Of a DNA stretch of 64,000 nucleotides, positions 1 through 64,000 are shown piece by piece. Below the pieces are notes generated by a model that worked only from the letters and a program-made list of their open reading frames with translations, was not told the DNA's origin and searched no databases. Origin of the DNA: Pristiophorus japonicus (lineage: Eukaryota); contig NC_091988.1 in NCBI RefSeq assembly GCF_044704955.1, positions 84,692,001 through 84,756,000 of the forward strand, written 5' to 3'. Every line of letters starts with the position of its first letter. Within the stretch, counting starts at the first letter, position 1. Made by a program: the position numbers and the translations under genes.

Positions 1-300
1 TATCCAGTCTGTCCAACCCATCATAATTTTATACATTTCAATGAGATCTCCTCATTCTGCTAAACTCAATAAATGCAGGCCTCGTTGACTGATTTCTCTC
101 CTCATACAACAGTCCTGCCATCCCAAGGAATCAGTCTGATGACCCTTTGCTGCACTGTCTCTATGGAAAGTATAACCTTTTAGTACGTTAAATCTATCAT
201 CTGGTGATTGACCTTTCTGCTAGAAAGTGTTCTCCTCCCCATTCCTTATGAAAACCTTCATTTTTTTTGAAAGTCTCTATTAAATCTCCCCTTCACAACT
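1..300 (-). mobile_element. Old CR1 3' fragments (antisense)
   Basis: Reverse-complement of the CR1 3' ORF2/UTR (GGAATCAGTCTG..GACCCTTTGCTGCAC). Longer versions at ~12420-13000, ~22245-22830, ~38010-38600, ~50990-51550. Confidence 0.65.
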
Positions 301-599
301 TTTCAAATAAATAAATCTCCACTCCTCTGGATTAAATATTGTGCCTTTTTAAATGGATGTAAGTAATAAGGAGCTGCTGCCATCTTTCTACAGAAAGTAG
401 ATGGGGTTACAGACACCCAGCATTCAGTCAGCCAGGAAGTTGTGTGAGCAGGTTCTAGTCTCCCTCCAGTGCCAAGGGAATAGACCAAAGCAGCATCTCC
501 TTAATTGGCCACTGCAGATAGGTATGTTTTAGACTCCACATACTGTAACTTCACTAAATGTGTTCCACATTTAATATTCCTTAATGGTTAGTTGTAATT

Positions 600-2840
600 G
601 TCTTTTTTTTAAATAAGTTTCGACAGGTACATTAAAAAGGACAAGAATAGTTAAAGTAAATGTTGGTCCCCTAGAGAATGAGACTGGGGAACAGGGAAAT
701 GGCAGACATTGAACAAATATTTTGTATTCTTCATGTTCGACAAAAAAAAAAAATCCAATAGTGGATAATCAAGGGACTATAGGATGGCAGAACAAGCTCT
801 AAAGAAGTGGTACTCAGTAAAATGATGGGATTAAATGTGGACAAGTCCCCTGCCCCTGATGGCTAACATCTGAGGGTTTTAAAAGAAGTGGCTCCAGAGA
901 TAGTGGATGGATTGTTGTGATCTACCAAAATTCCCTGGATTCTAGGGCAGTCCCAGCAGATTGGAAAACCGCAAATATAACTGCCCCTCATTATTTTTTT
1001 TTTTTAAAATGAGGCAGTAAACTATAGACCAGTTAGCCTAATATGTAATTGGGGAAAATGCTGGAGTCTATTAAGGAAGCAGTAACGAGACATTTGGAAA
1101 AGCATAACTTTATGAAGGGGAAATCATGTTTGACAAATTTGCTGGTGTTTTGGTGAGGATGTAACAAGGTGGGTGAATAAGGGGGTACCAGTGGATGCGA
1201 TGTATTTGCCTTCTGGAAATCTAAATAAGGTGCCATATTCATCACAAGCAGTCCCTCAAAACTAGGATGACTTCTTCCATGCCAAAAAAGGATGAGTTCA
1301 CAGGTGTTTCAATGAAGGATCCTGAACAGTGGAAGATACCAGTACATGGATTTTATTAAACGTTGGTGTCCGTTACACACCAGCCACCACACGGGCTTGA
1401 CAGCTAGGTCTTGGTCCAGTGGCAAGGGTTATCCAAGACGACTGGAGACCTGCTCTGCTGCACTGGTCTAGTGCGCGCACACATCGCAGTGTGGGCTGGC
1501 CGGTGCTGCCCCTGGCCCCGAACTCTCCTCTCCTGGGCCCCGATCACATCCCTCCAGTCTCTTGCCACTCCTGCTGTATTGCCCATGCTCCAATCACCGA
1601 CCTGGACATTTATGTCACTGGTCACCATCCAGCACCTGATGGTCTCCCTGCAGTAAGCTGGCTGCTGCGCATGCTCCCTGCCCCACAGCGGGACAATGGA
1701 AAGTGGTGTGACATCGAGGAAGCCCCGCCCCATTGCTCCCTGAGGCGGGTGGACTTGTGCAGACCAAAGATGGCGCCCGAACTCACTGCAACCCCCGACA
1801 GTAACAAAGGCCCGTCCATGCCCGAAGGTGCCCCGCAGCCACTGCCGCTGACTGTGGCCAAATTCCCCCCCCCCCCCACCTTCCTGCACATGTACTTGAG
1901 TGCAAGTCTGCAGGGAGGTTGTGCGCTGCCCAGGCCACACCTCCATCCTCCGTGGTGGCTACAAAACTTGCCCATCCACCAGTAATCTCCCACGTAGAAG
2001 GTTACTGCACAAGATAAAAGTTCATGGGGTTGGGGGTAATATATTAGCATGGGTAAAGGATTGGCTAACAGAAGAGTTGGGATAAATGGGTAATTTTCCA
2101 GTTGGCAAACAGTAACTAGTGGAGTGCTGCAGGGATTGGTGCTGGGTCCTCCACTATTTACAATCCATTAATGATTTGGATGAAGGGACTGAGTGCAATG
2201 TAGCCAAGTTTGCTGCTGATACAAAGATGGGTGGGAAAGTAAATTTAAGAGGAGGATACAAAATCTAGAAAGGGATATAAACAGGCTAAGTGGGCAAAAA
2301 TTTAGCAGCTGGAGTATAATATGGGAAAATGTGAGGTTATCTATTTTGGCAGCAATAATTGAGAAGCAAATTATAATTTAAATGAAGAAAAAGTGCTGCA
2401 GTACAGAGGGACTAGGTCGGAGGGGTGGTCTTTGTGCAAGAAACAGTTAGAATGCAGGTACAGCAAGTAATCAGGAAGGTAAATGGAATGTTGGCCTTTA
2501 TTGCAAGGGGGATAGAGTATAAAAGCAGGGAAGTCCTCTTACAACTATACAGGGTATTGAGGCCATACCTGGAATACTGCATACAGTTTTGGTCTCTGTA
2601 TTTAAGGAAGGATATACTTGCATTGGAGGCTGTTCAGAGAAAGTTCACTTGGTTGCTTCTGGAGCTAAGGAGGTTGACTTATGAAGGTAGGGTGGGCCTA
2701 TATCATTGGTGTTCAGAAGAATGAGAGATGATATTGAATCATAAGATAATGAGGGAGCTTGACAAGGTGGATGCAGAGAGGATATTTCCACTCATGGGGG
2801 ACATAGTTTTAAATGGGCGGCCCCTTATTCTGAGACTGAG
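600..2840 (+). mobile_element. Old degenerate CR1 LINE ORF2 remnant, interrupted by an RTE-type insert
   Basis: Fragments KSPxPDG, MKGKSCLTNLL, LLHKIKVHG, KANGMLAFIARGIEYKSREVLLQLY. Counterparts at ~13270-14800, ~23110-24640, ~38900-41118, ~51860-53400. Confidence 0.8.
1238..1988 (-). mobile_element. RTE-related non-autonomous retroelement inserted in the CR1
   Basis: Starts with a reversed RTE-like 3' end (TTCATCACAAGCAGTCCCTC...GGATGACTTCTTCCA) and separates contiguous CR1 sequence AAGGTGCCA|CACGTAGAAGGTTACTGCAC. Also at ~39519-40266; partial in B/C units. Confidence 0.5.
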
Positions 2841-2941
2841 TACTCAACTAGTGTTGGCCTGGATTTTGTGCTGCAGTCTCTGGAGTGGGATTTGAATACA
2901 TGATCTTCTGACCTCGGGTAGGGGGTCTACCCACTAAAGCA
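2841..2941 (-). mobile_element. tRNA-derived SINE head (antisense)
   Basis: The reverse strand has a B-box-like motif (GTATTCAAATCCCACTCCAGAGAC). Longer copies with part of the Deu-like core at ~14960-15205, ~24795-25040, ~53575-53820. Confidence 0.55.
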
Positions 2942-3254
2942 AATTCCATGTCTGATCTCCTTGGTACTAAACATTTTTAAAGACACTGACTCTTGTGGTA
3001 CTCAGGCCAACAGAGCAGAAAATCCCAGATTTGATGCTTGGTCTGCTCAGTGTTTGCCAATCTCAGCAAGTGGAACAGAGTTGGCCTCTGACCCGTGGCT
3101 AGTGAGGAGGCAAGTTAGCTGAAGATTCTTGCTCCTGATCACCATCTGGACACCCTGTCTGGAAAGTGCAGTTGTGAGGAGTGGATTCAAATTTATGATG
3201 CTGTTTTCCAATTTCCCCCACCCCCCCAACACTCCATCTCCCAGCTCCACCCAG

Positions 3255-3639
3255 GGGCTGGAATCAGTGTAAAACTCCCCGCGGGCTGTATTTGTAAACT
3301 TTTTATATATGTAAAGCATCATGATCTGAAAACATCGATGTAGCGTCATGTATAATGCAAGTTCTGTTTAGTAATGTATGTTGCAAAGAAATCTAACTAA
3401 CCTCACCCATTCCATGTACTGTATAGTGCCATATGTAATGTAATTTAATGACTGTATTACAATGTATCCTGAATTGTACCTCTGAAATGTAAAGCAAGCA
3501 ACTGCGTTGAACGGAACTGCCGTCAGTATCTAAATGTATTGTATGGAATTGCTGACCACATCTAAATGTACTGAACGGCTTTCCAATGTATTTTGTAAAT
3601 TTTATATTCATGAAGTATATTGTGAAATTAAAAAAAAAA
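3255..3639 (+). mobile_element. Poly(A)-tailed LINE 3' UTR remnant (L1/Tx1-like)
   Basis: TGTA-rich tract ending ...AAGTATATTGTGAAATTAAAAAAAAAA; present in every unit. The family assignment rests on resemblance only. Confidence 0.45.
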
Positions 3640-4218
3640 CTCCACTTCTAGTCCCACTACACTCAAATAGAGTGAAAATACTCATTGGCTGGGCTCACAT
3701 GACCAGCAGCCAATCAAGGTGAGGAATCTCTACGAATCAAAGCCTTCAGGCAAGGAGAACATTGGAGTGGGGAACAAAAAGACCCAAACTAAAAACAAAC
3801 TGAACTTTCTCCTTTTGGCTTCTGGGATTCAAGGTATGAATTTGACCAAGCCTGATGAAATGGAAGACACAAAACTCTCTTTCTCCCATTCTTTTTTACT
3901 CCCTGCTGCCTTTAATGGCCTTGGCTGAAATAAGTTTTAGGATAATCTCCACTCTTCCCACCCCAGACCCCACAGCACAAAACTAACTCACAATCAGGTG
4001 CTTAAAAATGGTCGGTCTCTCTCCCAGCTCTCAAGGAGTGTCTAGTGTGAGATGGGGTAATGCTACACTGGTGTAGGGGTTCTTGACCATGTCTGCTCGG
4101 TGTTAATGTTCATTGTTGGGGTCAGAATTTCTCTCCCAAATCTCCACCCAATAATGTGAAATGTCTGGGAATCTGGTATGAAAATGACATTGTGGGGAAA
4201 ACGGGCCAGCCCTGGATA

Positions 4219-4561
4219 TAGGGTTGCCAACGCTCCAGGATTACCCTGGAGTCTCCACAAAATAAAGATTAAATCTCCAGGACACTGTCGGTGAGCAGAA
4301 AAATCACAGGAGCATTAAAATAAATTGTCTTTTTCATTTTCTCTGAGCACGTCTGTTTATTGATGATAAAAATATTGGAGAAAGGATAAAATGGTTGTCT
4401 GACTGGGAGTCAAGAATCACCTGAGTGGGTAAGGAAGCGAGTCCGCTCTCCAATCAGGGTGGGAAGGTGGGGTGCCCTCAGGATGAACGTGTTGGTGGAA
4501 GGGTTGGAGGTCATGTGATGAAACCTCCAGGAATATGTCCAAAGAGGAGTTGGCCACTCCG
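4219..4561. mobile_element. hAT-like MITE
   Basis: TIR TAGGGTTGCCAAC ... GTTGGCCACTCCG; 8-bp TSD CCTGGATA (4211-4218) / CCTGGGTA (4562-4569). Also at 16439-16779, ~26275-26595 (left TIR deleted) and 42475-42817. Confidence 0.65.
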
Positions 4562-4737
4562 CCTGGGTATCGGAACACTCTGCCTGGGTTACCGCCTCCG
4601 CATCTTATCCATTCATAGAGTAGTTTTACATATTACACGAAGCAATCTCTCCTGGTGTTGTCCATGGGAAGGACAGGATCTCTTTCTTGATCGCTATAGG
4701 GGCCCTGTGGAAGATTATACACAATAAAGGCCCAACA

Positions 4738-5021
4738 GGTCACCCATGGCTCAATGGGTAACATGTTCCCTTCTGAGTCAGAAGGTCATGGGTTCATGTC
4801 CCACTCCAGGGAGTTGAGCAGGTAATCCAGGCCAACACTTCCAGTGCAGTACTGAGAGAATGCTGCACTGTCGGAGGTGCCGTCTTACGGATAAGACGTT
4901 AAACTAAGACACTGCCTGTAATTCTGACATTACAACAGTGACCACACTTGAAAAATACTGAATTGACTGTAAAGTGCTTTTGGATAATCCGTGGTTGTGA
5001 AATGTGCTATATAGACACAAG
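4738..5021 (+). mobile_element. tRNA-derived Deu-domain SINE (AmnSINE1/SacSINE1-like)
   Basis: A box TGGCTCAATGG; B box GGTTCATGTCCC; Deu core GCAGTACTGAG..TGCTGCACTGTCGGAGGTGCCGTCTT.CGGAT; L2-like tail GTAAAGTGCTTTTGG..GTGAAATGTGCTATATAGA. Also at ~16956-17239, ~26772-27055, ~42994-43277; tail only at 59288-59377. Confidence 0.75.
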
Positions 5022-5617
5022 GGGCGAGATCTTCGGCTTTCCGTTTTCAGGGCGAAAACAGAGGCGAGGCAGGAAATTTACTGCCCAATTAACGTTAGCG
5101 ATTAATTGCTTAACTTTCAACATGAGGTGGAGTGCAAAGGGAGGCGTTGAACTACTTTTGCAGCGCAAAAACAGGAACCTCGCCAACTTTAGTGCGGGGC
5201 CAGGAGCGCTCAGAGAGAGGCCTTGGGAGGGAAAAAAACATCAAAAAATCATTAAAGAAACATTGACAACACCCTTACCTCACAAATTGCTGCAAAAATT
5301 AAAACATAAAAAATTTTAACTTACCTTTTTTCCAGTTTATCCAACTCACCACCGCCGACAGGGCTGTGTTTTCCCTGGTGGTCATCGTGGGGCGCGTTTC
5401 GCGGCGTACGGGTCGAGTGAGACTCGAAACTCGCAGCGGTGTCACAATGTGAGCCGGTGCACACCTGGCGCAGCTCTCCCCGGTGTTTCTAAGCGCCACC
5501 GCAAAAAACGAATCGAGGATCGCGGCAGGGTGAAAAACAGCTGACCGACAGATTTTTCGCCGCGGAGGGTCAAAACCCGGCAAAAACCCGGTCGCAAATG
5601 ACCCCAAAATCCAGCCC
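5022..5617. mobile_element. CpG-rich PIF/Harbinger-like MITE inserted in the SINE tail
   Basis: Imperfect TIRs GGGC(G/T)AGATCTTCGG ... CCCAAAATCCAGCCC; 3-bp TSD AAG (5019-5021 / 5618-5620). Also at 17240-17853, 27056-27669, 43278-43873, 59378-59974. Confidence 0.65.
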
Positions 5618-7094
5618 AAGTTCGTTCTTTCTTTTCACTGGGTGTACAAATGGATTGTCCATTTTACCGTAGTAAAACCACACTAAAACATGACGCATCG
5701 GGACACTTCCTCCAATGGGGCCGCGCCACACTACCTGAGCACAGCTTCTGCCGAAACCAAACCACAAGTTCCTGAGGCGGCGGTTAATCCCCCCAATAAA
5801 CCACAGCCAGCTTCCTCCACATCTTCCTGCCAAGGTCATGAACAACACAGCACAGCACTCCATAAACCAATTAATCAGCAAGGCCAGGAATTATAGCAGG
5901 GCATTGACTGACTTTCTCACCCATCCATTACCGAGAGACACTAAGGCAAATTGATCAGCACCATCGCCAAGATTAGTAAGATCTGGACAAGTTCAGAAGT
6001 TAAATGTGGTGTCTGCTTGCCTGTCTGGTTCATTTCCATCCTGTCCATCCTGAGTGAGCCATTGGGTCATAGATCAGGAGCTGGGATTCCAGGGCTGAGA
6101 CTAAGGAGTGGGCAAGGGATGGTTGGAGAGGGGGAGGAGGGCACGGGGAGATCCCAGAGTAATAGAAGGGGGTTGGGGGCAGGGGCCAGCTGGTTTGGCA
6201 GGGTTCGGACAGGGAGTGGGGAGCAGTGCGAGTGGTGAGGTGCTGGGGCATATCGTGGGCAATTGAAGGGGAAAGGTGCGGGAATGAGGATGGGGAGGGG
6301 GTGGGCTGGGTGGGGCTAGGATGTAGGTAACAGATGTTGGGGTGAAGGAACTGTGGATGGGATGGGGTCAGTAGCCGGCAGCATCAGTGGGGGGAGGGGG
6401 CAGGGGATAGTTAGCAGGGTGCTGGAATTGGGGATGGGGGTGAGTTCAGGAGCCAGGAGTGGGTGCGGAGGGAAGCTCAATTGGCAAAAGAATTTTCAAT
6501 GATAATCGAGAGAGAAGGAGACTTCAGTAATAACTTGACCTCTGACCCAGGGCCTGGCGAAGGCCCAGACTGAGTGCAGCCCACGGGTTGCGAGGGGTCA
6601 CTCAGCCTTCCTGTCTCTCCTCCACAGTCTTGTCCATGCTCAGGTGGCCCTGGAGAGGGAGCATGCGGTGCCCATAGGTACACTCGAGTCCTCCTGCAAT
6701 CGATGGGTACCGCAGGGAAAGGAAAGTCTTATCGACACGAGTAATAATATTGTGATTTACATTATGAGTTTATTTTAGTTTAATAGGTGATGATGTTTAA
6801 TTATATTAGTGGTACTGCCTCAGTTTGAGGGGCACTTATGCAGTTGCCTCTCTGTTGGTGGAACTGGGCAATCCAGTGTTACTTCTATTGATTTATTAAA
6901 ATAAACCAAGACTTGACCAATTCTCTACATGCAATCAGCTATTGGACCTCAACAGGTCACTACAGACTGCATCAGGCTGTAGGCGCGTTATCCTGTTTAG
7001 ATCTGAATCCAATCTCACTCTAAACAAGTCTCCAATCGTTTTCGGGTCTTGCACCAAAAGGATTATAAAAGAGCCCATATACAGCTTTAAAACC

Positions 7095-7640
7095 AACAAC
7101 AACCTGCACTTATGTAGCACCTTTAACATCGTAAGATGACCCAAGGTGCTTCACAGGAAAGTTATCAAACACAATTTGACACTGAGTCACAAGTGGAGAT
7201 ATTAGAACAGGTGATCAAAAACATGTCAAATAGATAGGTCTTAAAGAGCGTCTTACAGGAGGACAAAAGCAAAATACTCCAGGTGCTGGAAATTTGAAAT
7301 AAAAATCGAAAATTTTGGAAATACTCAGCAGGTCAGGCAGCATCTTGGAGATAGAAACACAGTTAACGTTTCAGGTCGATGAACTTTCGTCAGAATTTAA
7401 TGTCGATGACCTTTCATCAGCGTCTGAAAGGAGGAGAGAGGCAGAGAGGAGGAGAGGCTCAGGGAGGATATCCCAGAGCTGAGGGCAAAGGCAGCTGAAA
7501 GCACAGCCAGCAATGGTGGAGCAATCGAAATCAGGGAGACGCAAGAGTCCACAATTGGAGGAGCGCAGAGATCTCGGAGCGTTGCAGGGTTGGAGGAGCC
7601 GAGGCAGGGGCGGAGTCGGGCAGTGGTACGGAGATGGAAA
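7095..7640 (-). mobile_element. L2-type LINE 3' fragment (antisense) containing a Penelope-like insert
   Basis: AACAACAACCTGCACTTATGTAGCACCTTTAAC is a reversed L2-type tail. Also at ~29200-29745, ~45348-45895, ~61493-62030. Confidence 0.6.
7264..7418 (-). mobile_element. Penelope-like terminal fragment with a hammerhead-ribozyme-like motif
   Basis: Flanked by a ~17-bp TSD AGCGTCTTACAGGAGGA (7247-7263) / AGCGTCTGAAAGGAGGA (7419-7435). The minus strand reads CTGACGA-AAGTTCATCGACCT-GAAACGTTAAC. Confidence 0.55.
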
Positions 7641-7918
7641 TAGACTTCTTTCAGTTCAACATTATCAAAGCTCTTAATAAAATATAGCTCTGTATTTATC
7701 TGAAGTTGTAAAGTTTGATTAAATTTACATAGTTTGAATAGAATGTATGTTCTTTAGGTGTCTGTGTATGTTTCTTTCATTATATTCTGTTTCAGTAAAT
7801 CTTCAGTACATCAAAAAACAAAAGCTGAACTTGTCTTGTTCCCATAGACCCAGATAGTCTCCAGCCTGGAGCATCTCCCGATCACTGACCCAGTCTGTGT
7901 GAAAAACTTTCTGGAAAC

Positions 7919-8012
7919 AACCAATTAGTAAGATTGTTGGATAGGCTATTGGTTTAGTTTAGCCACACCTGCTCCAATTGTTTTCAGGTGATGGCAGGCT
8001 GTGTGTATAAAA
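7919..8012 (+). promoter_or_regulatory. ZP3 copy 1 proximal promoter: CCAAT pair, three E-boxes, TATA box
   Basis: CCAAT 7921-7925, ATTGG 7948-7952, CACCTG 7966-7971, CAATTG 7975-7980, CAGGTG 7985-7990, TATAAAA 8006-8012 (59 nt before ATG). Confidence 0.75.
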
Positions 8013-8064
8013 GGGGATCAGGGGACTCCCCACAGAGCACAGTTGAGCTGTAGTAGTTTGTATT

Positions 8065-11000
8065 ATGGGGCAACTAGTGAAGGGTTTGGGGCCTCTGTTG
8101 ATTTTGATTGGAGCTGTTTGTTGCTCTGATACTAGGCAGCGGTTTAGAAACTGGGACTTCCCATGGAGCATTGACAAGGCCACTCGTGTCCCTCCTGGCC
8201 CAGCTTTTGATTCCAGTTTTAGTAAGTCTGAGGGGCGAAGTATGTCTCCACTGCAGACTGTGATGGTGCAGTGTGGAGAGCAGAACCTGCTGGTCAGAGT
8301 ACAGATGGATTTATTTGGAACCAGGCACCTGATTAAAGCAGCTGATCTGACCCTGGGGTCAACAGGTTGTCGGCCAACTGGGGTCTACTCTCAGAACCAC
8401 ACCGTCCTATTTCATTATGGGCTCCATGAATGTGACAGCACAGTGAAGGTAATGTGATTCTTGATCTAAAACCTTCTGCAAACAATGGGCCCCTGGGAGG
8501 AGGAACACTGGCATAGATTAGTTGGCCTGAATGGACTATTTGTGCTGAACATTCTATGAAATATTTGGACCTGGTAACAATATGATTTTAATGTAAGCTT
8601 TCATTTTGATTGGACTTCATGTTCAGAATATTTTAGAGGCTTGTTTAAATGAGATTCTCATTGAGGTTTCTTTCCCTGATTCAACCTTTTATTGATTGAA
8701 TCAAAACTGGGCATCTGGACTGAAGTACAAGGTTGAGACTGCCTTGAGCAATGTAATAGTGGAGGGTGAGATGAAGGGTTGCAGCTACATGAGTGACTTT
8801 TTTTTTGCTGTACATTTGGTGGTTTAGTCTTGATTTTCTGAGATTGGTTGGGACACAGTTGGAGTTCCATGCTGTTTTTGACTTGTAGAAAGAATCATGG
8901 GAACTGATTACTAAATATTCAAGTGTTCTTTATGCAAAAATGCTTGGAAAGATTGAGGCATTTTTCATCAAATTGAGGTGCCTCTAGAGTAAAGGCAGAA
9001 CATGCTTATGGTGAAATTGTACTGAGGAAACCTAGACTGAAGACAATCCTTTGAAGGGATTCTTAGGATTGTTGACATTTTAGAATGTTATGTCTTGAAT
9101 AGTCAGACTAGATACTGCAAGCTCAAAGTAAGATGTGACCATAGTCCTTTTATTACAGATCACAGTGCCTCTCCAGCCTGTGAGACCTCCTTTTTTTATA
9201 ATATATAATATTGCTCCCACGGCATTGTGGGGTCCCTTGGGACTCCAGGGGATAAGTCCTCTGGTGGTTAGACATGTTTACATACATCACAGACTGCATC
9301 ACCATAAGTGACCATAAAGTACTGAGACCCAATGGAGCAGTTATCCCTATTTCTGTCTTCCATCCCTAAACCCCTCTGCCTCTACCACTCCATCTGTTTA
9401 TGGCACTTATTAAAACTTTGTTTGTGGCCAAACCTTTGGTCAAATATCTTTCATTGATTTGGTGCCAAACTTTTTTTTCTGAACCTCCCTGTGAAGTGCC
9501 TTAATGTTTTACTATGTCAAGTGAGTTTTATATAAATGCACAAGTGGATGATTGTGGGTCACTTCCCTGCAGAGGCCTACAATATCTCTTCAAATGGATT
9601 TGGATAGGGCTGGGACTCTAATTAATAGAAGTATGAAGGGCTGTGTGTTTCTCTAAACACTGCTCTCTTGTCCAAGAATGACTCCCTTGTTCTGTACCTG
9701 ACCCTGACCAGATCACATTTTCTCTCCCAGATGACGGATGACCTGCTGATTTACACCAGCCACCTGTACTACAGGCCAAGCCGTATTGGAGGAGTCATTG
9801 TGAGAACCAGTGGAGCAGTTGTCCCTATTGTGTGCCATTATCCCAGGTAAGGTGGATGATTGACAGGCTCTCCTTTCCTCTGATGGGGTTGTGAATTGGA
9901 AGTAAAACTGGCCTTTCTTCTTCCCACAGGAAGAGGACAGTGAGCAGCAATGCGATCAAGCCCACCTGGGTCCCCTTCTCCTCCACCAAGGCCGGAGAGG
10001 GACATCTGTCATTCTCCCTGCGTCTGATGACTGGTAAGTGATTGTCAATGATCTACCATGCATGTTTTACCCATTCCTTGGAATCAAGTGAGGAACTCAA
10101 AGCTTGTGTTCCTGCTCTCATTCCCTTTCCCTTTCCAGCTAACTGGAGTGCAGAGCGTACCTCCAATATCTACCACCTGGGTGACCTCATTAACATCGAG
10201 GCCTCTGTGATGACCGTGAACCACATGCCTCTGAAGCTCTATATTGACTGCTGTATAGCTACACTGAGCCCAGACCAGGACTCCACCCCCAGATACAACA
10301 TCATTGCCTTCAACGGGTAAGGTCTTTATCTGGGCTGCATATGTCACATACATAACTGTTTGGCGGAGGGAATCCATTCTTAATGATGCAGCTCTTTCTG
10401 ACCCTCTTTCCAGTTGCCTGTTGGACAGCCGAGACGAAGACTCCTTTTCGTCCTTCGTGTCACCGCGAGATCACCTGGATAAGCTTCAGTTCAAGCTGGA
10501 TGCATTCCGCTTCTTTGAGGATGACAGGGACTTGGTAAGAGGAGACCAGATGTTGAGACAGTGAGCGTTTGACACTGAGTAACTCCTGCATGTGTCTCCT
10601 GCAGATCTTCTTCACTTGCCACCTGAAAGTAGCTGCAGCAGATCAAAGGCCAGATTCAGTCAACAAAGCTTGTTCCTTCCAGAAGCCAGCCAACCGGTGA
10701 GTGAAATCTAACCAACAATGGTGATCCTCTTTGGTCAGAATGCATCCATATGCCAATGGTGTGCTTCCTTGTTTGTTTAGATGGTCCCTGGTGACTGAAT
10801 TGGACCTGTCCATGGTGGAAGGATCCACTGAGGTTTGTGCCTGTTGTGATGGGGGCAACTGCAGAGCCTCGAGATTGCGATCTGGAGGAAGACTTCACTC
10901 CAGGGGCAGGAGAGAGGTCCTATCTGAGCTGGGTATGTTGTGGTGGTATTGGGTGTTGGGACTATTGTTTGATGTTTGTTTGTAACTGGATGGAATGAAT

Positions 11001-11303: not shown

Positions 11304-11349
11304 ATCCTTTCTCATTTGGGCTTTTCCATCATTTGTCAAAAAATGGAGT

Positions 11350-11355
11350 AATAAA
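11350..11355 (+). terminator. Polyadenylation signal of ZP3 copy 1
   Basis: AATAAA ~47 nt after the stop, followed by GT/T-rich sequence. Conserved after copies 2, 3 and 4 (~20659, ~33365, ~49599). Confidence 0.65.
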
Positions 11356-12156: not shown

Positions 12157-12251
12157 GAGTGGAGAGTGGAGAGTGGAGAGTGGAGAGTGGAGAGTGGAGA
12201 GTGGAGAGTGGAGAGTGGAGAGTGGAGAGTGGAGAGTGGAGAGTGGAGAGT
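12157..12251 (+). repeat. Perfect heptamer microsatellite (GAGTGGA)13+GAGT
   Basis: Directly visible. Confidence 0.97.
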
Positions 12252-50712: not shown

Positions 50713-50766
50713 AATTCTCTCCACCTGCCACTTTGGGGTCAGTTGAAACTCAGCAGTATCAGTTTA

Positions 50767-53400: not shown

Positions 53401-55402
53401 TTCTTATACTACTTCTGGGCTCCCTGACCAGAGGAAATATTTTTCCTGACCAATTCCTTTTAACCTACATCTCAATTAGATCACCCTTTGAACCTTCTTT
53501 ACTCAAGGAATACAAATCGAGTCTAAGCAGCCTGTTTCTATAATTTAACCCTTTTAGCCCTAGTATCATTCTGATAGATATTGGCCAGAACACAGAGCAC
53601 TGCCCTGCTCTTCCAATAGTCCCATGGGATATTTTACGGCTGCTCGAGAGGGCAGATGGTGCTGTGGTTGAACGTCCCATCTGAAAGACGCACCTCTACC
53701 AGTGCAGTGCTCCTTCAGTACTCAACTAGTGTTGGCCTGGATTTTATGCTGCAGTCTCTGGAGTGGGATTTGAACACATGATCTTCTGACTCGGGTAGGA
53801 GCACTACCTACTGAGGCAAATTCAATGTCTGATCTCCTCTGTACTAAACATTTTTAAAGGCACTGACTCTTATGGTACTGAGGCCAACAGAGCAGAAAAT
53901 TTCAGATTTGATGCTTGGTCTGCTCAGTGTTAGCCAATCTCAGCAAGAGGAGCAGTGTGGGGGAATAGAGTTGGCCTCTGACGCTTGCCTAGTGAGGAGG
54001 CAAGTTAGCTGAAGATTCTTGCTCCTGATCACTATCCGGACACCCTGTCTGGAAACTGCAATTGTGAGGAGTGGATTCAAGTTTATGATGCTGTTTTCCA
54101 ATCCCCTACACTCCCTCCCCAATATCCCTTTTCCCAACTCCACCCTGGGGCTGGAATCAGTATAAAACTCCCCTTGGGCTGTACTTGTAAACTTTTTGTA
54201 TACATAGGTGTTTTCAGATCATGGTGCTCTATGTAATGCCATGTATAATGCAAGTTCTGTTTAGTAATAGATTTCTTTCCAACATACAACAGTAACCTCA
54301 CCCATTCCATGTACTGTAATTGGATGACTGTATTACATTGTCTCCTGAATTGTACCTCCTAAATGTAAAGCAAGCAAATGTATTAAACGGAACTGCTGTC
54401 AGCATCTAAAATGTATTGTATGGAATTGCTGACTACATCCAAATGTACTGAACTGGTTCCCAATGTATTTTGTAAATTTTTATATTGAAGTATATTTTGA
54501 GGGAAGGCATCATGTCGCCAGTCGAATTCAGTGACTGGGCGAGCCCGATTGTGCCAGTGCTCAAGGCGGATGGGTCGGTCAGGATATGTGGCGATTACAT
54601 GGCCACCATCAATCGGGTGTCACTCCAAGACCAGTACCCGCTACCGAGAGCGGAGGACCTCTTTGCGACGCTATCCGGTGGCAAACTTTTTTCAAAATTG
54701 GACCTGACCTCAGCGTACATGACCCAGGAGCTGGCGAGTGAGTCGAAGAAGCTGACCACCATCACGACACACAAGGGGTTGTTTGAGTACAACAGATGTC
54801 CGTTCGGGATTCGCTCGGCCACCGCGATCTTCCAACGAAATATGGAAAGTCTCCTCAAGTCGATTCCAGGGACGGTGGTTTTTCAGGACGACATCCTCAT
54901 TACGGGTTACGATACTGAAGAACACCTCCACAACCTGGAGGAGGTGCTACGCAGACTGGACCGGGTAGGTCTGCGACTGAAAAAGCCGAAGTGCGTCTTC
55001 CTAGCTCCAGAGGTAGAATTCCTGGGGATGAGGGTAGCAGCAGACGGGATCAGCCCTACTGCATCCAAGACGGAAGCGATCCAGAGAGCACCCAGACCCC
55101 GTAACATGACGGAGCTGCGTTCGTTCCTGGGGCTCCTGAACTATTATGGTAACTTTCTTCCCAAATTGAGCACGCTGCTAGAGCCGCTACACGTGCTCCT
55201 ACGCAAAGGTCGCGAATGGGTCTGGGGGGACAGCCAGGAAAGGGCTTTTAATAGAGCACGCAATTTGTTATGTTCCAACAATCTGTTAACGCTATATGAC
55301 CCATGTAAGAAACTTGTGTTAACGTGCGATGCGTCGTTCTATGGTGTCGGGTGTGTGTTGCAGCATGTGAATGCCAAGGGTCAGTTACAGCCAGTAGCTT
55401 AT

Positions 55403-57296
55403 AGAAACATACAAACATAGAAAATAGGTGCAGGAGTAGGCCATTCAGCCCTTCTAGCCTGCACCGCCATTCAATGAGTTCATGGCTGAACATGCACTTC
55501 AGTAACCCCTTCCTGCTTTCTCGCCATACCCCTTGATCCCCCGAGTAGTAAGGACTTCATCTAACTCCCTTTTGAATATATTTAGTGAATTGGTCTCAAC
55601 TACTTTCTGTGGTAGAGAATTCCACAGGTTCACCACTCTCTGGGTGAAGAAGTTTCTCCTCATCTCGGTCCTAAATGGCTTACCCCTTATCCTTAGACTG
55701 TGACCCCTGGTTCTGGACTTCCCTGACATTGGGAACATTCTTCCTGCATCTAACCTGTCTAAACCTGTCAGAATTTTAAACGTTTCTATGAGGTCCCCTC
55801 TCATTCTTCTGAACTCCAGTGAATACAAGCCCAGTTGATCCAGTCTTTCTTCATAGGTCAGTCCCACCATCCTGGGAATCAGTCTGGTGAATCTTCGCTG
55901 CACTCACTCAATAGCAAGAATGTCCTTCCTCAAGTTAGGAGACCAAAACTGTACACAATACTCCAGGTGTGGCCTCACCAAAGCCCTGTACAACTGTAGC
56001 AACACCTCCTGCCCCTGTACTCAAATCCCCTCGCTATGAAGGCCAACATGCCATTTGCTTTCTTAACCGCCTGCTGTACCTGCATGCCAGCCTTCAATGA
56101 CTGATGTACCATGACACCCAGGTCTCGTTGCACCTCCCCTTTTCCTAATCTGTCACCATTCAGATAATAGTCTGTCTCTCTGGTTTTCCCACCAAAGTGG
56201 ATAACCTCACATTTATCCACATTATACTTCAATCTGCCATGCATTTGCCCACTCACCTAACCTATCCAAGTCACTCTGCAGCCTCATAGCATCCTCCTCG
56301 CAGCTCACACTGCCACCCAACTTAGTGTCATCCGCAAATTTGGAGATACTACATTTAATCCCCTCGTCTAAATCATTAATGTACAATGTAAACAGCTGGA
56401 GCCCCAGCACAGAACCTTGCGGTACCCCACTAATCACTGCCTGCCATTCTGAAAAGTACCCATTTTCTCCCTTGTCCACTTTACTGGAAACATCCTCAAA
56501 AAATTCCAGAAGGTTTGTCAAGCATGATTTCCCTTTCACAAATCCATGCTTATCATGTCACCATTTTCCAAATGCACTGCGATGACATCCTTAATAATTG
56601 ATTCCATCATTTTACCCACTACTGATGTCAGGCTGACCGGTCTATAATTCCCTGTTTTCTCTCTCCCTCCTTTTTTAAAAAGTGGGGTTACATTGGCTAC
56701 CCTTCACTCGATAGGAACTGATTCAGAGTCAATGGAATGTTGGAAAATGACTGTCAATGCATCCACTATTTCCAAGGCCACCTCCTTAAGTACTCTGGGA
56801 TGCAGTCCATCAGGCCCTGGGGATTTATCGGCCTTCAATCCCATCAATTTCCCCAACACAATTTCCCGACTAATAAAGATTTCCCTCAGTTCCTCCTCCT
56901 TACTAGACCCTCTGACCCCTTTTATATCCGGAAGGTTGTTGGTGTCCTCCTTAGTGAATACCGAACCAAAGTACTTGTTCAATTGGTCTGCCATTTCTTT
57001 GTTCCCAGTTATGACTTCCCCTGATTCTGACTGCAGGGGACCTACGTTTGTCTTTACTAACCTTTTTCTCTTTACATACCTATAGAAACCTTTGCAATCC
57101 GCCTTAATGTTCCCTGCAAGCTTCTTCTCGTACTCCATTTTCCCTGCCCTAATCAAACCCTTTGTCCTCCTCTGCTGAGTTCTAAATTTCTCCCAGTCCC
57201 CGGGTTCACTGCTATTTCTGGCCAATTTGTATGCCACTTCCTTGGCTTTAATACTATCCCTGATTTCCCTTGATAGCCACGGTTGAGCCACCTTCC
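55403..57296 (-). mobile_element. 5'-truncated CR1 LINE nested in the Gypsy RNase H domain
   Basis: Minus-strand ORFs KSPGPDGLHPRVLKE, GVPQGSVLG, KFADD, RRFTRLIP; tail AGAAACATACAAACATAGAA at the left end; CTTAT duplicated at 55398-55402 and 57297-57301; internal deletion near 56465. Confidence 0.92.
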
Positions 57297-57361
57297 CTTA
57301 TGCCTCCAGGAGTCTGTCCCAGGCAGAAAGGGGCTATGGGATGGTAGAAAAGGAGGCGCTC

Positions 57362-57413
57362 GCATGTGTATATGCGGTAAAGAAAATGCATGTGTATATG
57401 CGGTAAAGAAAAT
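57362..57413 (+). repeat. 26-bp tandem duplication frameshifting Gypsy pol
   Basis: GCATGTGTATATGCGGTAAAGAAAAT x2. Confidence 0.9.
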
Positions 57414-59053
57414 GCACCAGTACCTGTTTGGCAGGAAACTTGAGCTGGAGACAGATCACAAACCCCTAACGTCCCTTTTGGCCGACAACAAGGTCATAAA
57501 TGCAAACGCATCGGCCCGCATACAGAGGTGGGCACTCACGTTAGCTGCCTATGACTACACAATTCGGCATAGACCGGGCACCGAAAACTGCGCCGATGCA
57601 CTCAGCAGGCTCCTACTAGCCACCACTGAGGGGACTACCGAGCATGGTGCTGAGATGGTCATGACTGTTGAAGCTTTCGGAAGCGAAGGCTCACCCGTGA
57701 CAGCCCGTCAGATTAAAGTCTGGACAAACAGAGACCCGCTATTGTCTCTAGTCAAGAAATGTGTCCTGAATGGGGACTGGGCAGCCATGTACAGGGCATG
57801 CCCTGAGAAATTTAAACCATTTCACAGGTGCAAGGATGAACTCTCGATTCAGGCCGATTGCCTACTGTGGGGAAACCGCGTAGTCATGCCCCAGATGGGC
57901 AGAGAGGTGTTCATCAGAGAACTCCACAATGGGCACCCGGGCATTGTCACGATGAAGGCAATTGCCAAGTCACACGTTTGGTGGCCAGGGATAGACGCAG
58001 ATCTGGAACTTTGTGTTCGCAGGTGCAACACGTGTGCCCAGCTGGGCCATGCGCCCAGGGAAGCCCCCCTTAGCCCCTGGCCATGGCCCGCCAAGCCTTG
58101 GTCACGCATCCATGTGGACTACGCAGGTCCTTTCATGGGGAAAATGTTTTTGGTTGTAGTAGACGCCTACTCCAAATGGATCGAGTGTGACATTTTAAAT
58201 TCAAGCACATCCTCTGCCACGGTAGAAAGTCTACGGCAAATGTTCGCCGCCCATGGTCTACCGGACATCTTGGTCAGCGACAATGGCCCGTGCTTCACAA
58301 GCACTGAATTCCAGGACTTCATGCAGGCAATGGAATTAACCATGTTAGAACGGCACCATTCAAGCCGGCCTCAAACGGCCAGGCAGAACGAGCAGTGCAG
58401 ATAATCAAACAGGGGATGCTCAGATTCCAAGGGGGTTCCCTACAAACCCGCTTATCACGCCTCCTGTTGGCCTATAGATCCCGACCACACTCGCTCACAG
58501 GGGTTCCACCCGCACAGCTACTAATGAAAAGGAAGCTCAAAACCCGATTATCCCTTATACACTCCACCATGAAAGAAATTGTCGAGAGCAGGCGCCAGTC
58601 ACAATATCACTACCATGACAGGAATGCGAGGGCGCGATGTATTGATGCAAATGATCCTGTTTTTGTCCTCAACTACGCTGCAGGGCCCAAATGGCTCGCA
58701 GGCACTGTGGTTGCCAAAGAGGGAAATAGGATTCTGGTAGTTAAACTTACCAATGGACAAATCTGCCGCAAACATGTGGATCAAACAAAAAGGAGGTTCA
58801 GCAACCCCATAGAAGAAGCAGAGGAAGAACACGATATAGAGTTCACTCCACCACAGGTGACCGAACACCGGAACCAAAGGGAGGAGAGCCCAGTTTCTGT
58901 GGGCAGTCCGGACAGGCCTGAGGCACTGCAAACAGCAGACACTCAGGCCAGCGCCCAACAACCAGAGCCCCAACTCAGGCGCTCTACAAGGGAGCATAAA
59001 CCACCAGAGAGACTCAACCTGTGATCCCAATAAGACTTTGAGGGGGGAGGTGC

Positions 59054-59287
59054 TGTCATGTATTCAACCAGCAGTGTAACCCATGTATAAACTGACCGAA
59101 GTTGTACACCGTGAGAACACTGACCACTAGGTGGGAGACACTCCTAACCTGGACCTTCAGGTATAAAAGGGGATGCTCCACCCACCTTCATCACTTGAAT
59201 GCTAAGGAATAAAGGACAGGTCACAGACTGACCTTCTCTCAAGCATGGGCCTCGTGTGCATTTTTACTGTGTAGTAAGGACGTAACA
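59054..59287 (+). repeat. 3' LTR of the Gypsy element
   Basis: TG...CA ends just after the PPT; TATAAAA 59162-59168; AATAAA 59208-59213. Host SINE sequence ACAACTGTGACC resumes at 59288. Confidence 0.75.
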
Positions 59288-62200
59288 ACAACTGTGACCA
59301 CACTTCAAAAATACTGAATTGACTGTAAAGTGCTTTTGGATGTTCCGTGGTTGTGAAATGTGCTATATAGACACAAGGGGCTAGATCTTCGGCTTTCCGT
59401 TTTCAGGGCGAAAACAGAGGCTAGGCAGGGAATTTACTGCCCAATTAACGTCAGCGATTAATTGCTTAACTTTCAACATTTGGGCTCTGTGCCAGAGGTG
59501 GAGCACAAAGGGAGGCGTTGAACTACTTTTGCAGCTCAAAAACAGGAACCTCGCCAACTTTAGTGCGGGGCCAGGAGCGCTCAGAGAGAGGCCTTGGGAG
59601 GGGAAAAAATGTCAAAAAATCATTAAAGAAACATTGCAAACACCCTTACCTCACAAATCGCTGCAAAAATGAAAACATTAAATATTTTAACTTACCTTTT
59701 TTCCAGTTTATCCAACTCACCACCGCTGACAGGACTGTGTTTTCCCTGGTGGTCATCGTGGGGTGCGTTTCGCGGCGTACGGGTCGAGTGAGACTCGAAA
59801 CTCGCAGCGGTGTCACAATGTGAGCCGGTGCACACCTGGCGCTTCTAAGCGCCGCCGCAAAAAAGGAATCGAGGATCGCGACAGGGTGAAAAACAGCTGA
59901 CCGACAAGAGTTTTCGCCGCGGAGGGTCAAAACCCGGCAAAAACCCGGTCGCAAATGACCCCAAAATCCAGCCCAAGTTCTTTCTTTCTTTTCACTGGGT
60001 GCACAAATGGATTGTCCATTTTACCGTAGTAGAACCACACTATAACATGGCACATCGGGACACTTCCTCCAATGGGGCCGCGCCACACTACCTGAGCACA
60101 GCTTCTGCCGAAACCAAACCACAAGTTCCTGAGGCGGCGGTTAATCCCCCCAATAAACCACAGCCAGCTTCCTCCACATCTTCCTGCCAAGGTCATGAAC
60201 AACACAGCACAGCACTCTATAAACCAATTAATCAGCAAGGCCAAGAATTATAGCAGGGGCATTGGTTGACTTTCCCCCCCTTCCATAACCGACACTAAGG
60301 CAAATTGATCAACACCATGGGCCAAGACTAGTAAGCTCAGGACAAGTTCAGAAGTTAAATGTGGTGTCTGCTTGCCTGTCTGGTTCAGTTCCACCCTGAG
60401 TGAACCATTGGGTCGTAGATCAGGAGCTGGGATTCCAGGGCTGGGACTAAGGAGTGGGCAGGGGACGGTTGGAGAGGGGGCGGAGGGCTCCAGGAAGGTC
60501 CTAGAGTAACAGAAGAAGGTGGGGGCGGGAAGGTAGGGGAAGGGGATGGGGGGCAGGGACAGTTGCAGGGGGTGGGGGCTGGACCAGCTGGTTTGGCAGG
60601 GTTCGGACAGGGGGTGAGGAACAGTGCGAGTGGTGAGGTGCTGGGGCACATAGTGGCCAGTTGAAGGGGAAAGGTGGGGGGACAGGGGTGGGGGGTGGGT
60701 GGGGCTAGGAGGGACGTAACAGACATTGGGGTGCAGGAATTGTGGACGGGGTGGGGTCAGTAGGTGGCAGCATCAGTGGGGGGAGGGGGCAGGGGATAGT
60801 TAGCAGGGTGCTGGAATTAACGATGGGGGTGAGCTCAGGAGTGGGAGAGGAGGGAAGCTCAATTGGCAAAAGAATTTTCAATGATAATCGAGAGAGAAGA
60901 ATTCTGTAATAACTTGACCTCTGACCCAGGGCCATCGAAGACAAATATTCACAGGCCCAGACTGAGTGCAGCCCACGGGTTGGGAGGGGTCACTCAGCCT
61001 TCCTGTCTCTCCTCCTCGGTCTTGTCCATGCTCAGGTGGCCCTGGAGAGGGAGCATGCGGTGCCCATCGGTACACTCGAGTCCTCCTGCAACCGATGGGT
61101 ACCGCAGGGAAAGGAAAGTCTTATCGACACGAGTAATAATATTGTGATTTACATTATGAGTTTATTTTAGGTGATATTAATAGGTGATGATGTTTAATTA
61201 TATTAGTGGTGCCGCCTCAGTTTGAGGGGCACTTATGCAGCTGCCTCTCTGTTGGTGGAACTGGGCCAATCCAGCATCACTTCTATTGATTTATTAAAAT
61301 AAACCAAGACTTGACCAATTCTCTACATGCAATCAGCTATTGGACCTCAACAGGTCACTACAGACTGCATCAGGCTGTAGGGCAGTTATCCTGTTTCGAT
61401 CTGAATCCAATCTCATTCTAAACAAGTCTCCAATCGTTTTCGGGTCTTGCACCAAAAGGATTATAAAAGAGCCCATGTACAGCTTTAAAACTAACAACAA
61501 CCTGCACTTATGTAGCGCCTTTAACATCGTAAGATGACCCAAGGTGCTTCACAGTAGTGTTATCAAACACAATTTGACACTGAGTTACAAGTGGAGATAT
61601 TAGAACAGGTGATCAAAAACTTGTCAAATAGATAGGTCTTAAAGAGCGTCTTCCAGGAGGACAAACGCAAAATATTGCAGGTGCTGGAAATTTGAAATAA
61701 AAATAGAAAATTTTGGAAATACTCAGCAGGTCAGGCAACATTTTGGAGAGAGAAACACAGTTAACGTTTCAGGTCGATGAACTTCCATCAGAATTTAATG
61801 TCGATGATCTTTCATTAGCGTCTGAGAGGAGGAGAGAGGCAGAGAGGAGGAGAGGCTCAGGGAGGATATCCCAGAGCATAGGGCAAAGGCAGCTGAAGGC
61901 ACAGCCAGCAATGGTGGAGCAATCGAAATCAGGGAGACGCAAGAGGCCACAATTGGAGGAGCGCAGAGATCTCGGAGCGTTGCAGGGTTGGAGGCAGGGG
62001 TGGAGTCGGGCAGTGGTACGGAGATGGAAATAGACTTCTTTCAGTGAAACATTATCAAAGCTCTTAATAAAATATAGCTCTGTATTTATCTGAAGTCAAA
62101 AAGTATGTGTAAATTTAAATAGTTTGAATAGAATGTATGTTCTTTAGGGGGTCTGTATATGTTTCTTTCATTATATTCTGCTTCAGTAAATCTTCAGTAC

Positions 62201-62309
62201 ATCAAAAAACAAAAGCTGAACTTGTCTTGTTCCCATAGACCCAGATAGTCTCCAGCCTGGAGCATCTCCCGATCACTGACCCAGTCTGTGTGAAAAACTT
62301 TCTGGAAAC

Positions 62310-62403
62310 AACCAATTAGTAAGATTGTTGGATAGTCTATTGGTTTCGTTGAACCACACCTGCTCCAATTGTTTTCAGGTGATGGCAGGCTGTGTGTATA
62401 AAA
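62310..62403 (+). promoter_or_regulatory. ZP3 copy 5 proximal promoter
   Basis: Same motif set; TATAAAA at 62397-62403. Confidence 0.72.
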
Positions 62404-62455
62404 GGGGATCAGGGGCCTCCCCACAGAGCACAGTTGAGCTGCAGTAGTTTGTATT

Positions 62456-62839
62456 ATGGGGCAACTAGTGAAGGGTTTGGGTCCTCTGTTGGTGTTGATT
62501 GGAGTTGTTTGTTGCTCTGATACTAGGCAGCGGTTTAGAAACTGGGACTTCCCATGGAGCATTGAGAAGGCCACTCGTGTCCCTTCTGGCCCAGATTTTG
62601 GTTCTGATTTCAGTAAGTCTGAGGGGCAAAGTGTGTCTCCACTGCAGACTGTGATGGTACAGTGTGGAGAGCAGAACCTGCTGGTCAGTGTGCAGATGGA
62701 TTTATTTGGAACCAGGCACTTGATTAAAGCAGCTGATCTGACCCTGGGGTCAACAGGTTGTCGGCCTACTGGGGTCTACTCTCAGAACCACACTTTCCTA
62801 TTTCACTATGGGCTCCATGAATGTGACAGCACAATAAAG
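62456..62839 (+). CDS. ZP3: ZP3-like copy 5, exon 1 (gene continues beyond window)
   Basis: 384-nt exon 1 homologous to copies 1/3/4 (signal peptide + first part of ZP-N), donor AAG|GTAATG. Intron 1 runs to the window end. Confidence 0.88.
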
Positions 62840-64000
62840 GTAATGTGATTCTTGATCTAAAACCTTCTGCAAACAATGGGCCACTGGGAGGAGGAACATG
62901 GGCATAGACTAGTTGGGCTGAATGGACTGTGTGCTGAACATTCAATGAAATATTTGGACCTGTAACAATATGATTTTAATGTAAGCTTTCATTTTGATTG
63001 GACTTCATGATCAGAATATTTTAGTGAGGTCTGTTTCAATGAGATACTCATGGAGGTTTCTTTCCCTGATTCAATGTTTTATTGATTGAATCTAAACTGG
63101 TCATCTGTACTGAAGTACATGGTGACTAGACTGCCTTGAGCAATGTAACAATGGAGGGTGAGATGAAGGGTTGTGGCAACATGGGTGACTTTTTTTGATG
63201 TACGTTTGGTGGTTTAGTTTTGATTTCTGAGATTGAACTCCAACTTTATCCCAACCGATGTTATATTTCACAATTTGTAGAAAATCATGGGAACTGATTA
63301 CTAAATATTCAAGGGTTCTTTTATGCGAAAATGCTTTGACAGAATGAGGCATTTTTCATCAAATTGAGCTGCCCCTAGAGTAAAGGCAGAACATGCTTAT
63401 GGTGAAATTGTACTGAGGAAACCTAGACTGAAGACAATCCTTTTGAAGGAATTGTCAGGATTGTTTAAATTTGGAATGTTATGTCTTGCATAGTCAGACT
63501 AGATACTGCGAGCTCAAAGTAAGATGTGACCATAGTCCTTTTATTACAGATCAGAGTAGCCTGTGAGACCTCCTTCTTTTTTTTTTAATATATAATGATG
63601 CTCCCATGGCATAGTGGGATACCTTGGGACTCCAGGGGATAAGTCCTCTGGTGGTTTGACATGGTATTTAAAGGTTTACATGCATCACCATAAGTGACCA
63701 TAAAGTACTGAGGCCAATGGAGCAGTTATCCCTAGTGCTGTCTTCCATCCCTAAACCCCTCTGCCTTTCTACCACTCCATCTGTTTATGGTACTTATTCA
63801 AACTTTGCTTAAGTGGCCAAGCCTTTCGTCAAATATCTTGCGTCGATTGGTGCCAAACTTTTTTTTTTAACCTCCCGTGAAGTGCCTTAATGTTTTACGA
63901 TGGCAAGTGAGTTATATAAGTGCTTGATTGAGGTTCCCTTCCCCCAGAGGCTGAAATATCTCTTCAAATGCATTTGGATAGAGCTGGGACTCTAATTAAT

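Follow-up and report, generated by a model that had tools for sequence, protein, structure and literature searches.

A tandem array of membrane-anchored ZP3 egg-coat genes in the sawshark Pristiophorus japonicus and multi-copy ZP3 across sharks

The window, a stretch of 64,000 nucleotides of contig NC_091988.1 of the sawshark Pristiophorus japonicus (positions 84,692,001 to 84,756,000 of the forward strand), carries genes for ZP3, an egg-coat protein of the zona pellucida (ZP). Self-comparison of the window revealed five ZP3 units of ~10-16 kb each, arranged head-to-tail and all on the + strand. Units A, C and D are intact, B lacks its promoter and exon 1, and E is cut by the window end. Self-comparison and gene models thereby bore out the initial annotation, which had described at least five head-to-tail copies, three of them complete, one decapitated and one running off the window. 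Position 1 is the counterpart of position 38294, ~450 bp into a unit, and unit E stops in intron 1, so that both window ends lie inside units, as had also been proposed; likewise, the spacers were duplicated along with the genes, including an old long interspersed nuclear element (LINE) fragment. Our favored reading, held with modest confidence, is that the window is part of a real sawshark tandem array of ovary-made ZP3 precursors which evolves by birth and death and is kept for dose. The units and their boundaries are as follows.

1..12156, + strand, repeat unit A; 1-12077 aligns to 38294-50331, with 1.28% substitutions relative to D
12157..12251, + strand, perfect 7-bp repeat of 13.6 copies at the A/B boundary, replacing ~0.6 kb present at the B/C boundary
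12252..22076, + strand, repeat unit B, a C-like spacer fused to a non-C-like gene body
18074..18078, + strand, deletion junction with 5-bp microhomology, where ~2.98 kb was removed (promoter, exon 1 and start of intron 1 of B)
22077..37847, + strand, repeat unit C, from self-comparison and identity windows
37848..50331, + strand, repeat unit D, from self-comparison and identity windows
50332..50712, no strand, 381 N, where unit A has its closing 7-bp repeat at the homologous position
50713..64000, + strand, repeat unit E, truncated in intron 1 by the window end

The gene copies within these units were modeled exon by exon and compared with UniRef protein models.

8065..11303, + strand, ZP3 copy A, 9 exons, 456 amino acids; residues 25-456 contained in P0056
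8065-8448, 9731-9846, 9930-10033, 10139-10316 and 10414-10534, + strand, exons 1-5 of copy A
10605-10696, 10781-10932, 11009-11143 and 11215-11303, + strand, exons 6-9 of copy A
19023..20612, + strand, ZP3 copy B, exons 2-9 only, open frame, 328 amino acids; identical to P0132
30169..33316, + strand, ZP3 copy C, 9 exons, 455 amino acids; residue 25 onward contained in P0055
46318..49552, + strand, ZP3 copy D, 9 exons, 456 amino acids; residue 25 onward contained in P0059
62456..62839, + strand, ZP3 copy E, exon 1; residues 47-128 contained in P0062

Every intron of copies A, C and D is bounded by GT-AG and their frames are open, with a one-codon deletion in exon 2 of C. Copy B, which has no signal peptide and half a ZP-N domain, is likely a pseudogene. 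The gene of copy E likely continues past the window, since the matching database model, P0062, is full length. All models containing window copies letter for letter (P0056, P0055, P0059, P0132 and P0062) are named Pristiophorus japonicus; with A, C and D from residue 25 and the whole of B lying inside proteins of this species, the probable cartilaginous fish origin first proposed from the letters is supported. The sawshark loci are already annotated in databases, mostly with wrong 5' ends: only 2 of the 19 sawshark models of the window's type (type I, defined below) begin with the window's signal-peptide start, and the alternative database start maps to upstream spacer DNA in three of the four models checked. 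Annotation of this ZP3 lineage therefore needs correction in the 17 of 19 database models without the signal-peptide start. One further sawshark model of 555 amino acids, P0004, reads as two fused ZP3 copies and is likely a gene-prediction join across adjacent units. Separately, a contig of 227 letters from run X5 (depth 5.36) lies almost exactly on exon 8 of copy C (33021-33152), and depth arithmetic on neighboring bins would agree with its remainder covering the tail of exon 7 and the head of exon 2. This hints at a spliced RNA in which exon 8 is joined to exon 2, by back-splicing or read-through into a downstream copy; X5 also contains unspliced pieces. Most ZP3 exons stayed uncovered in runs X5, X6 and X7, which says nothing about expression either way.

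Several lines of evidence agreed with the ZP3 identity given in the initial annotation. The closest solved structure was ZP3 itself (3NK3, phmmer E 3.6e-99; ZP2, 5.9e-4), and Pfam searches with exons 1 and 4 and with P0002 returned PF23344 and PF00100 only, with no trefoil and no extra ZP-N domain. A fold search with the predicted model of P0059 placed ZP3 chains at ranks 1-6 (E 2.5e-31 to 6.7e-24), the next match having an E of 4.7e-11. This model, with a mean predicted local distance difference test (pLDDT) score of 71, a predicted template modeling (pTM) score of 0.47 and the wrong database N-terminus, comprises ZP-N, a loose linker, ZP-C, the strand of the external hydrophobic patch (EHP) and a transmembrane (TM) helix, the EHP and TM blocks reaching pLDDT 87-91. 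The 12 ZP3 cysteines (residues 70, 102, 123, 163, 240, 262, 306, 324, 351, 353, 354 and 359 in A and D, shifted by one in C) were invariant in alignment A1, including ZP-N Cys 102/123 and the four-Cys ZP3 subdomain. A furin site, R-G-R-R, is found at residue 373 in A and D (372 in C), the TM segment spans ~430-448 in A, C and D with an intact short cytoplasmic tail, and the EHP was placed by alignment and model; sequence, alignment and predicted structure thus uphold the claim that furin site, EHP and TM are kept. The hydrophobic N-terminus of A, C and D, recognized by hydropathy only, was read as a signal peptide. ZP precursors are reported to be held by the EHP and freed by furin cleavage (passages of PMC8391237), and vertebrate coats to require ZP3 together with a ZP1/2/4-type subunit (passages of bioRxiv 10.1101/2023.06.21.544075). 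The intact copies would accordingly encode membrane-anchored precursors, likely made in the ovarian follicle; by established ZP biology, furin cleavage, gated by the EHP, would free the precursor, and the released ZP3 would join a ZP1/ZP4-type partner in forming the egg envelope.

Upstream of the start codons, the four promoter-bearing copies share one motif set.

7921..8064, + strand, promoter of copy A; counted from the ATG, TATA box at -59, E-boxes at -99 and -80, CCAAT boxes at -144, -117 (reverse) and -91; both motif counts attained by 1 of 10000 shuffled sequences
30025..30168, + strand, promoter of copy C, motif set as in A
46174..46317, + strand, promoter of copy D, motif set as in A
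62312..62455, + strand, promoter of copy E, motif set as in A

The TATA box, three CCAAT boxes and two E-boxes stand at identical offsets in all four. Shuffled promoters matched both motif counts in 0-1 of 10000 cases, and 16 of 1276 200-bp windows passed the motif test, 14 of them at the four promoters. CCAAT boxes reportedly play a role in fish zp promoters, including those of zebrafish; a literature search on this gave nothing relevant. The TM segment cannot distinguish an oocyte from a follicle-cell origin, because bird ZP3 is made by follicle cells and yet has a TM. FIGLA-bound E-boxes are described as drivers of oocyte ZP genes (passages of PMC13704971 and PMC8391237). The promoter motifs favor ovarian expression of the window copies, which we regard as very probable, and more than one copy is probably active.

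ZP3-like protein models proved abundant in each shark covered by homology searches and cluster look-ups. Among 276 labelled proteins, at least 36 belonged to the sawshark, 46 to Heptranchias, 28 to Chiloscyllium punctatum, 26 to Mustelus, 24 to Heterodontus and 20 to Stegostoma; these are protein records rather than loci, isoforms and unplaced scaffolds included, and lower bounds, as 15 of 38, 15 of 33 and 15 of 19 members were listed for clusters with more than 15 members and many clusters were never opened. Rays had 1-3 ZP3 proteins per species in the same set, with incomplete sampling. In a tree of 158 rows built by a quick method (171 gathered, 7 dropped for short cover and 6 identical ones collapsed), 34 changes accounted for the 31 species labels, where at least 30 are required and shuffled labels averaged 111.8. 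A sawshark-only clade of 17 rows (SH-like approximate likelihood ratio test [SH-aLRT] support, 96) contained the window copies. This phylogeny with other chondrichthyans, which the initial annotation had suggested, thus showed copies clustering mostly by species. Judged from these protein sequences, ZP3 is multi-copy shark-wide and shows recurrent within-species turnover rather than a one-off event, and the large ZP3 sets in many sharks weaken the earlier view of the array as a lineage oddity. Two shark-like ZP3 records, P0012 and P0276, carry the names of bacteria (Salmonella, Aeromonas); in the tree P0012 falls beside rows from the basking shark, and both records are likely contaminated.

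Two ZP3 types were separated by a tree of exons 2-7 from 49 chosen rows: type II, whose members come from sharks and rays (support 100/99), and type I, to which the window copies belong (99/93). The same exons reject the idea that type I arose from type II within squalomorphs alone (P value of the approximately unbiased test [p-AU], 1.1e-7); the constraint put every type I and type II row from the sawshark and Heptranchias into one group, which was named after the trees had been seen. From the split and this rejection it follows that the duplication would predate the shark-ray split. Type I accounted for 19 of the 36 sawshark proteins and 1 of the 46 from Heptranchias, and at least 17 sawshark proteins were type II. 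Multi-copy type II sets, many on one contig, were present in Heptranchias, Heterodontus, Mustelus, Chiloscyllium, Stegostoma, Scyliorhinus and others. Type I was found in none of 166 galeomorph and 16 batoid proteins, a provisional absence, since the results covered neither dogfish nor angel sharks and the sole Heptranchias copy had been hidden among the members of a type II cluster.

The exon-1 half of ZP-N was 79-88% identical between the two types in sharks, compared with 66-71% for exons 2-7, and relative to Callorhinchus exon 1 is the faster part (38-54% identity versus 58-65% for exons 2-7). Conversion of exon 1 between types is therefore likely on these identity contrasts, which carry the claim, the exon-1 tree (66 columns) being mostly unresolved. 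Moreover, 5 of the 24 Heterodontus models, P0005 among them, combine a type I-like N-terminus with a type II body; these hybrids suggest that type I was once present in galeomorph ancestors.

The array was likely built and pruned by unequal crossing-over, and its copy number likely raises the dose of egg-coat protein. Many tandem copies with intact frames, as expected of a dosage-type array, are seen in the window (3 intact among 4 fully visible units) and in the sawshark as a whole (19 type I models). The ratio of nonsynonymous to synonymous substitution rates (dN/dS) was 0.22-0.41 in six of nine copy pairs, and a check for positive selection among the window copies, of low power, found dN/dS above 1 in none of the 9 pairs. 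On balance, selection for dose is slightly more probable than not. Several observations weigh against it and against the reading built on it. One of the five units is broken, and dN/dS was 0.50-0.71 in three of the nine pairs (A-C, A-D and C-D). Copy A has two extra cysteines, at 239 (adjoining conserved Cys 240) and 388, as well as other changes at conserved positions, as expected under partial redundancy of copies. The promoter test was framed after the motifs had been seen, on four promoters that lack independence from one another, and it was also passed by two windows outside any promoter (11651 and 33701). With at least 17 type II proteins in the sawshark, the type I copies would be unneeded for dose alone; a dose model also requires the ZP1/ZP4 partner to be amplified or up-regulated. 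Finally, ZP copy number and chorion thickness were uncorrelated in teleosts (rho 0.286, p 0.493; passages of PMC13704971). As a side observation, some of the copy A changes recur in the database copies P0024 and P0063 and are thus not simple assembly errors.

Rays, like sharks, make large yolky eggs. The earlier suggestion that the array serves the coating of very large yolky eggs found no support, given the 1-3 proteins per ray species and a teleost copy number that does not track chorion thickness. Thickening of the zona pellucida during vitellogenesis is described for catshark follicles (passages of PMC10794776); the literature search turned up no reports of very thick zonae in sharks.

The same observations can be read without selection on copy number: one or few copies would suffice, and array size would fluctuate by unequal crossing-over between the long shared spacers. 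The broken unit B with its microhomology junction, the higher dN/dS of A-C, A-D and C-D, transposable element (TE) insertions private to single units and the missing link between copy number and thickness in teleosts (PMC13704971, in part) are all what such recombination-driven drift would leave. It accounts less well for the intact frames and splice sites of A, C and D, and even of B's remaining exons, for the low dN/dS of the other six pairs, for promoter motifs at identical offsets in four of four copies and for large ZP3 sets recurring across many shark species. We consider drift of this kind rather unlikely.

The two types also differ in the linker and at other sites, as scored in 289 proteins (291 minus 2 fragments with non-vertebrate labels). 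None of the 20 type I proteins has the linker N-glycan sequon, its Asn being replaced by Thr or Met in each; the sequon is kept by 191 of 202 type II proteins (8 not covered, 3 without it) and by 66 of 67 others. All 20 type I proteins, and no other protein covered, carry a 7-8 residue insertion before the Cys cluster. At residue 203, 15 of the 20 have gained a sequon, which is missing from all 199 type II proteins covered and occurs in 1 of the 67 others. P0189 from Heptranchias, a long-branch ZP3, likewise has no linker sequon, and its grouping with type I is weak (94/79). In the fish filament, the linker Asn is described as invariant and its glycan as packing against the ZP-C domain of ZP1, and a linker-glycan mutant was still secreted (passages of bioRxiv 10.1101/2023.06.21.544075). 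We did not treat the linker sequon as defining ZP3, because this mutant is secreted and the 3NK3 chain has Gln in the corresponding column.

These differences raise the possibility that type I is a distinct subunit, amplified to alter envelope properties or sperm interaction rather than for bulk, and that it would pack differently on ZP1/ZP4 without the linker glycan. The uniform loss of the sequon, the insertion, the sequon at 203, the depth of the type I lineage and the packing of the glycan in the fish filament all fit such a specialization. Set against it are the absence of any pair with dN/dS above 1, a glycan unnecessary for secretion (bioRxiv 10.1101/2023.06.21.544075, in part) and a type I that looks dispensable in galeomorphs and batoids, where it was not seen; we judge it unlikely. 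A joint reading can be offered only tentatively: two ZP3 paralogs would predate the shark-ray split, type II would have been repeatedly amplified into species-specific arrays of tens, and type I would survive only in squalomorphs, having gained a type II-like exon 1 by conversion, lost the ZP1/ZP4-locking glycan and been amplified in sawsharks as a second subunit altering filament assembly. If this is true, the ZP3 arrays of sharks amount to a natural experiment, so far undescribed, on how much egg-coat protein is made and what the coat is composed of.

Divergence among the units bears on whether the array is real. Over 12001 aligned positions, 154 distinguish A from D (1.28%); between the B and C spacers the count is 46 of 5801 (0.79%), and the remaining unit pairs diverge by 2.9-14.0% depending on the segment. 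Unit B is chimeric, with a spacer 97-99.7% identical to that of C in 600-bp windows and an intron 1 that consists of ~230 bp of A-like sequence followed by sequence 96.5% identical to E. This intron is 8.3% from C, and the whole segment 7.3-8.3% from every other copy. Exchange within genes is limited, since 58 of 64 informative sites in the gene bodies group A with D. The units form a mosaic and are paralogs, not haplotypes, because of this structure and a divergence of 1.3%-14%, which speaks against the haplotype duplicates that the initial annotation had named as a refutation.

That the units are haplotypes or mis-joined contigs set in tandem is accordingly very improbable. A and D are 97.9% alike over 12 kb, and the 381-N stretch lies between D and E, as an artefact might leave them. 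Yet the A-D difference of 1.28% is about six times the nucleotide diversity of 0.002 in another shark, the epaulette shark (passages of PMC10587355), other pairs are 2.9-14% apart, and at least three distinct copy types exceed what two haplotypes can supply. The block from A to D is gap-free, the 381-N stretch separating it from E, and the C/D junction has the same structure as the B/C junction. In DNA run X1, 30 of 30 bins over copy C were covered and the exon-2 deletion allele of C was in the minority (153.5 of 167.4 depth carries the other form), a weak point, since the depth of X1 contigs does not translate into copy number and the assembly may have been made from X1 itself. The 381-N stretch itself may be an unresolved 7-bp repeat or an assembly join. 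With the epaulette-shark mutation rate of 7e-10 per generation (interval 1.4-14.1e-10; PMC10587355, in part), 1.28% corresponds to ~9 million generations (4.5-46 million, by hand arithmetic with a rate from another species). The description "recently amplified" is therefore weakened: it holds in the sense of lineage-specific and not in that of necessarily young, and the units are not uniformly young (segment divergences from 0.79% to 14.0%).

Teleost choriogenins, which are made in the liver, are not known to have a TM; the word "transmembrane" does not occur in the passages checked (PMC10140178 and PMC9330664). That the window copies are such liver-made, estrogen-induced precursors, like choriogenin L, is extremely improbable: euteleosts do make thick envelopes by liver synthesis (passages of PMC10140178) and an estrogen response element (ERE)-like near-palindrome lies past the stop codon in A, B and D, but TM and cytoplasmic tail are intact, no ERE was found at up to 2 mismatches within 3 kb upstream of any of the four promoters, and the five one-mismatch ERE sites in 64 kb, three of them homologous, are near chance (~2 expected, by hand estimate). 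The near-palindrome has one mismatch, stands ~220 bp past the stop (11524, 20832 and 49770) and is degraded in C.

The spacers hold the following TE remains.

2084..2727, 13874-14519, 23709-24354, 40362-41005 and 52463-53098, + strand, old LINE fragment in every unit, 66-69% match to younger LINE copies
34328..37380, + strand, LINE insertion private to the tail of unit C; homology to B ends at 34327 and resumes at 37381; Pfam PF03372, PF14529 and PF00078
54476..59024, + strand, broken long terminal repeat (LTR) retrotransposon pol private to the E spacer, with reverse transcriptase, RNase H and integrase; Pfam PF00078, PF17919, PF17917, PF17921 and PF00665
~55466-57280, - strand, LINE nested in the E-spacer pol, 91-95% identical to the LINE in the C tail

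The LINE of unit C consists of broken endonuclease and reverse transcriptase fragments; we take both it and the old fragment to be CR1-like. From its domain order, the LTR element of the E spacer appears Ty3/Gypsy-like. The two insertions of the same LINE family (34328-37380 and 55466-57280) lie on opposite strands, each private to one unit, and are usable for dating events in units C and E. Rfam gave 0 matches in the window.

ZP gene surveys have so far included almost no sharks, and the usual picture is of few ZP genes outside teleosts. Our literature searches, which covered few subscription journals and no supplements of shark genome papers, where an expanded-family table may already list it, turned up nothing on ZP3 arrays in sharks. 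The word "shark" is not mentioned in the passages and section 6 of PMC6262864 (Table 1 content and supplements fall outside these), sharks are unmentioned in PMC13361971, and ZP3 is unmentioned in the whale shark genome paper. Shark ZP3 copy number can now be tested against egg size, envelope thickness and egg-laying or live-bearing in a second fish lineage, and the sawshark copies, as natural ZP3 without the linker glycan, offer a direct test of the ZP3/ZP1 filament model.

Compared with vertebrate ZP3 of solved structure (3NK3/3NK4; fish, 8BQU/8RKI), the sawshark copies share signal peptide, ZP-N, ZP-C, four-Cys subdomain, furin site, EHP, TM and the linker P-T-W Thr; type I differs in the replaced linker Asn, the insertion of 7-8 residues and, in the amplified copies, the sequon at 203. 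Elasmobranch type II sets are, like type I, multi-copy and mostly species-clustered, with an exon-1 half of ZP-N that is 79-91% identical to that of type I in sharks; they differ in forming a separate clade on exons 2-7 (100/99), with 66-71% identity there, and in keeping the linker sequon (191/202). Choriogenin L of teleosts is likewise a ZPC-class envelope protein tied to thick envelopes (passages of PMC10140178); membership of the window copies in this class was rejected on their TM and the lack of an upstream ERE. The sawshark is internally fertilizing, unlike the hosts of teleost arrays. In catfish, 20-22 tandem ZP3 genes are expressed only in oocytes (passages of PMC13704971), and lineage-specific tandem ZP duplications are described in teleosts (passages of PMC6262864). 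The latter paper sorts ZP3 genes into ZP3.1, ZP3.2 and ZP3.3 by their phylogeny alongside reference members and by synteny; the window contains no flanking genes. These arrays share with the sawshark tens of tandem copies, some of them pseudogenes, and dose as the proposed reason; the sawshark array differs in its 10-16 kb units with TE-laden spacers. Tandem ZP3 amplification is thus already known in teleosts and the array alone is ordinary, whereas shark-wide turnover and a glycan-less paralog go beyond it.

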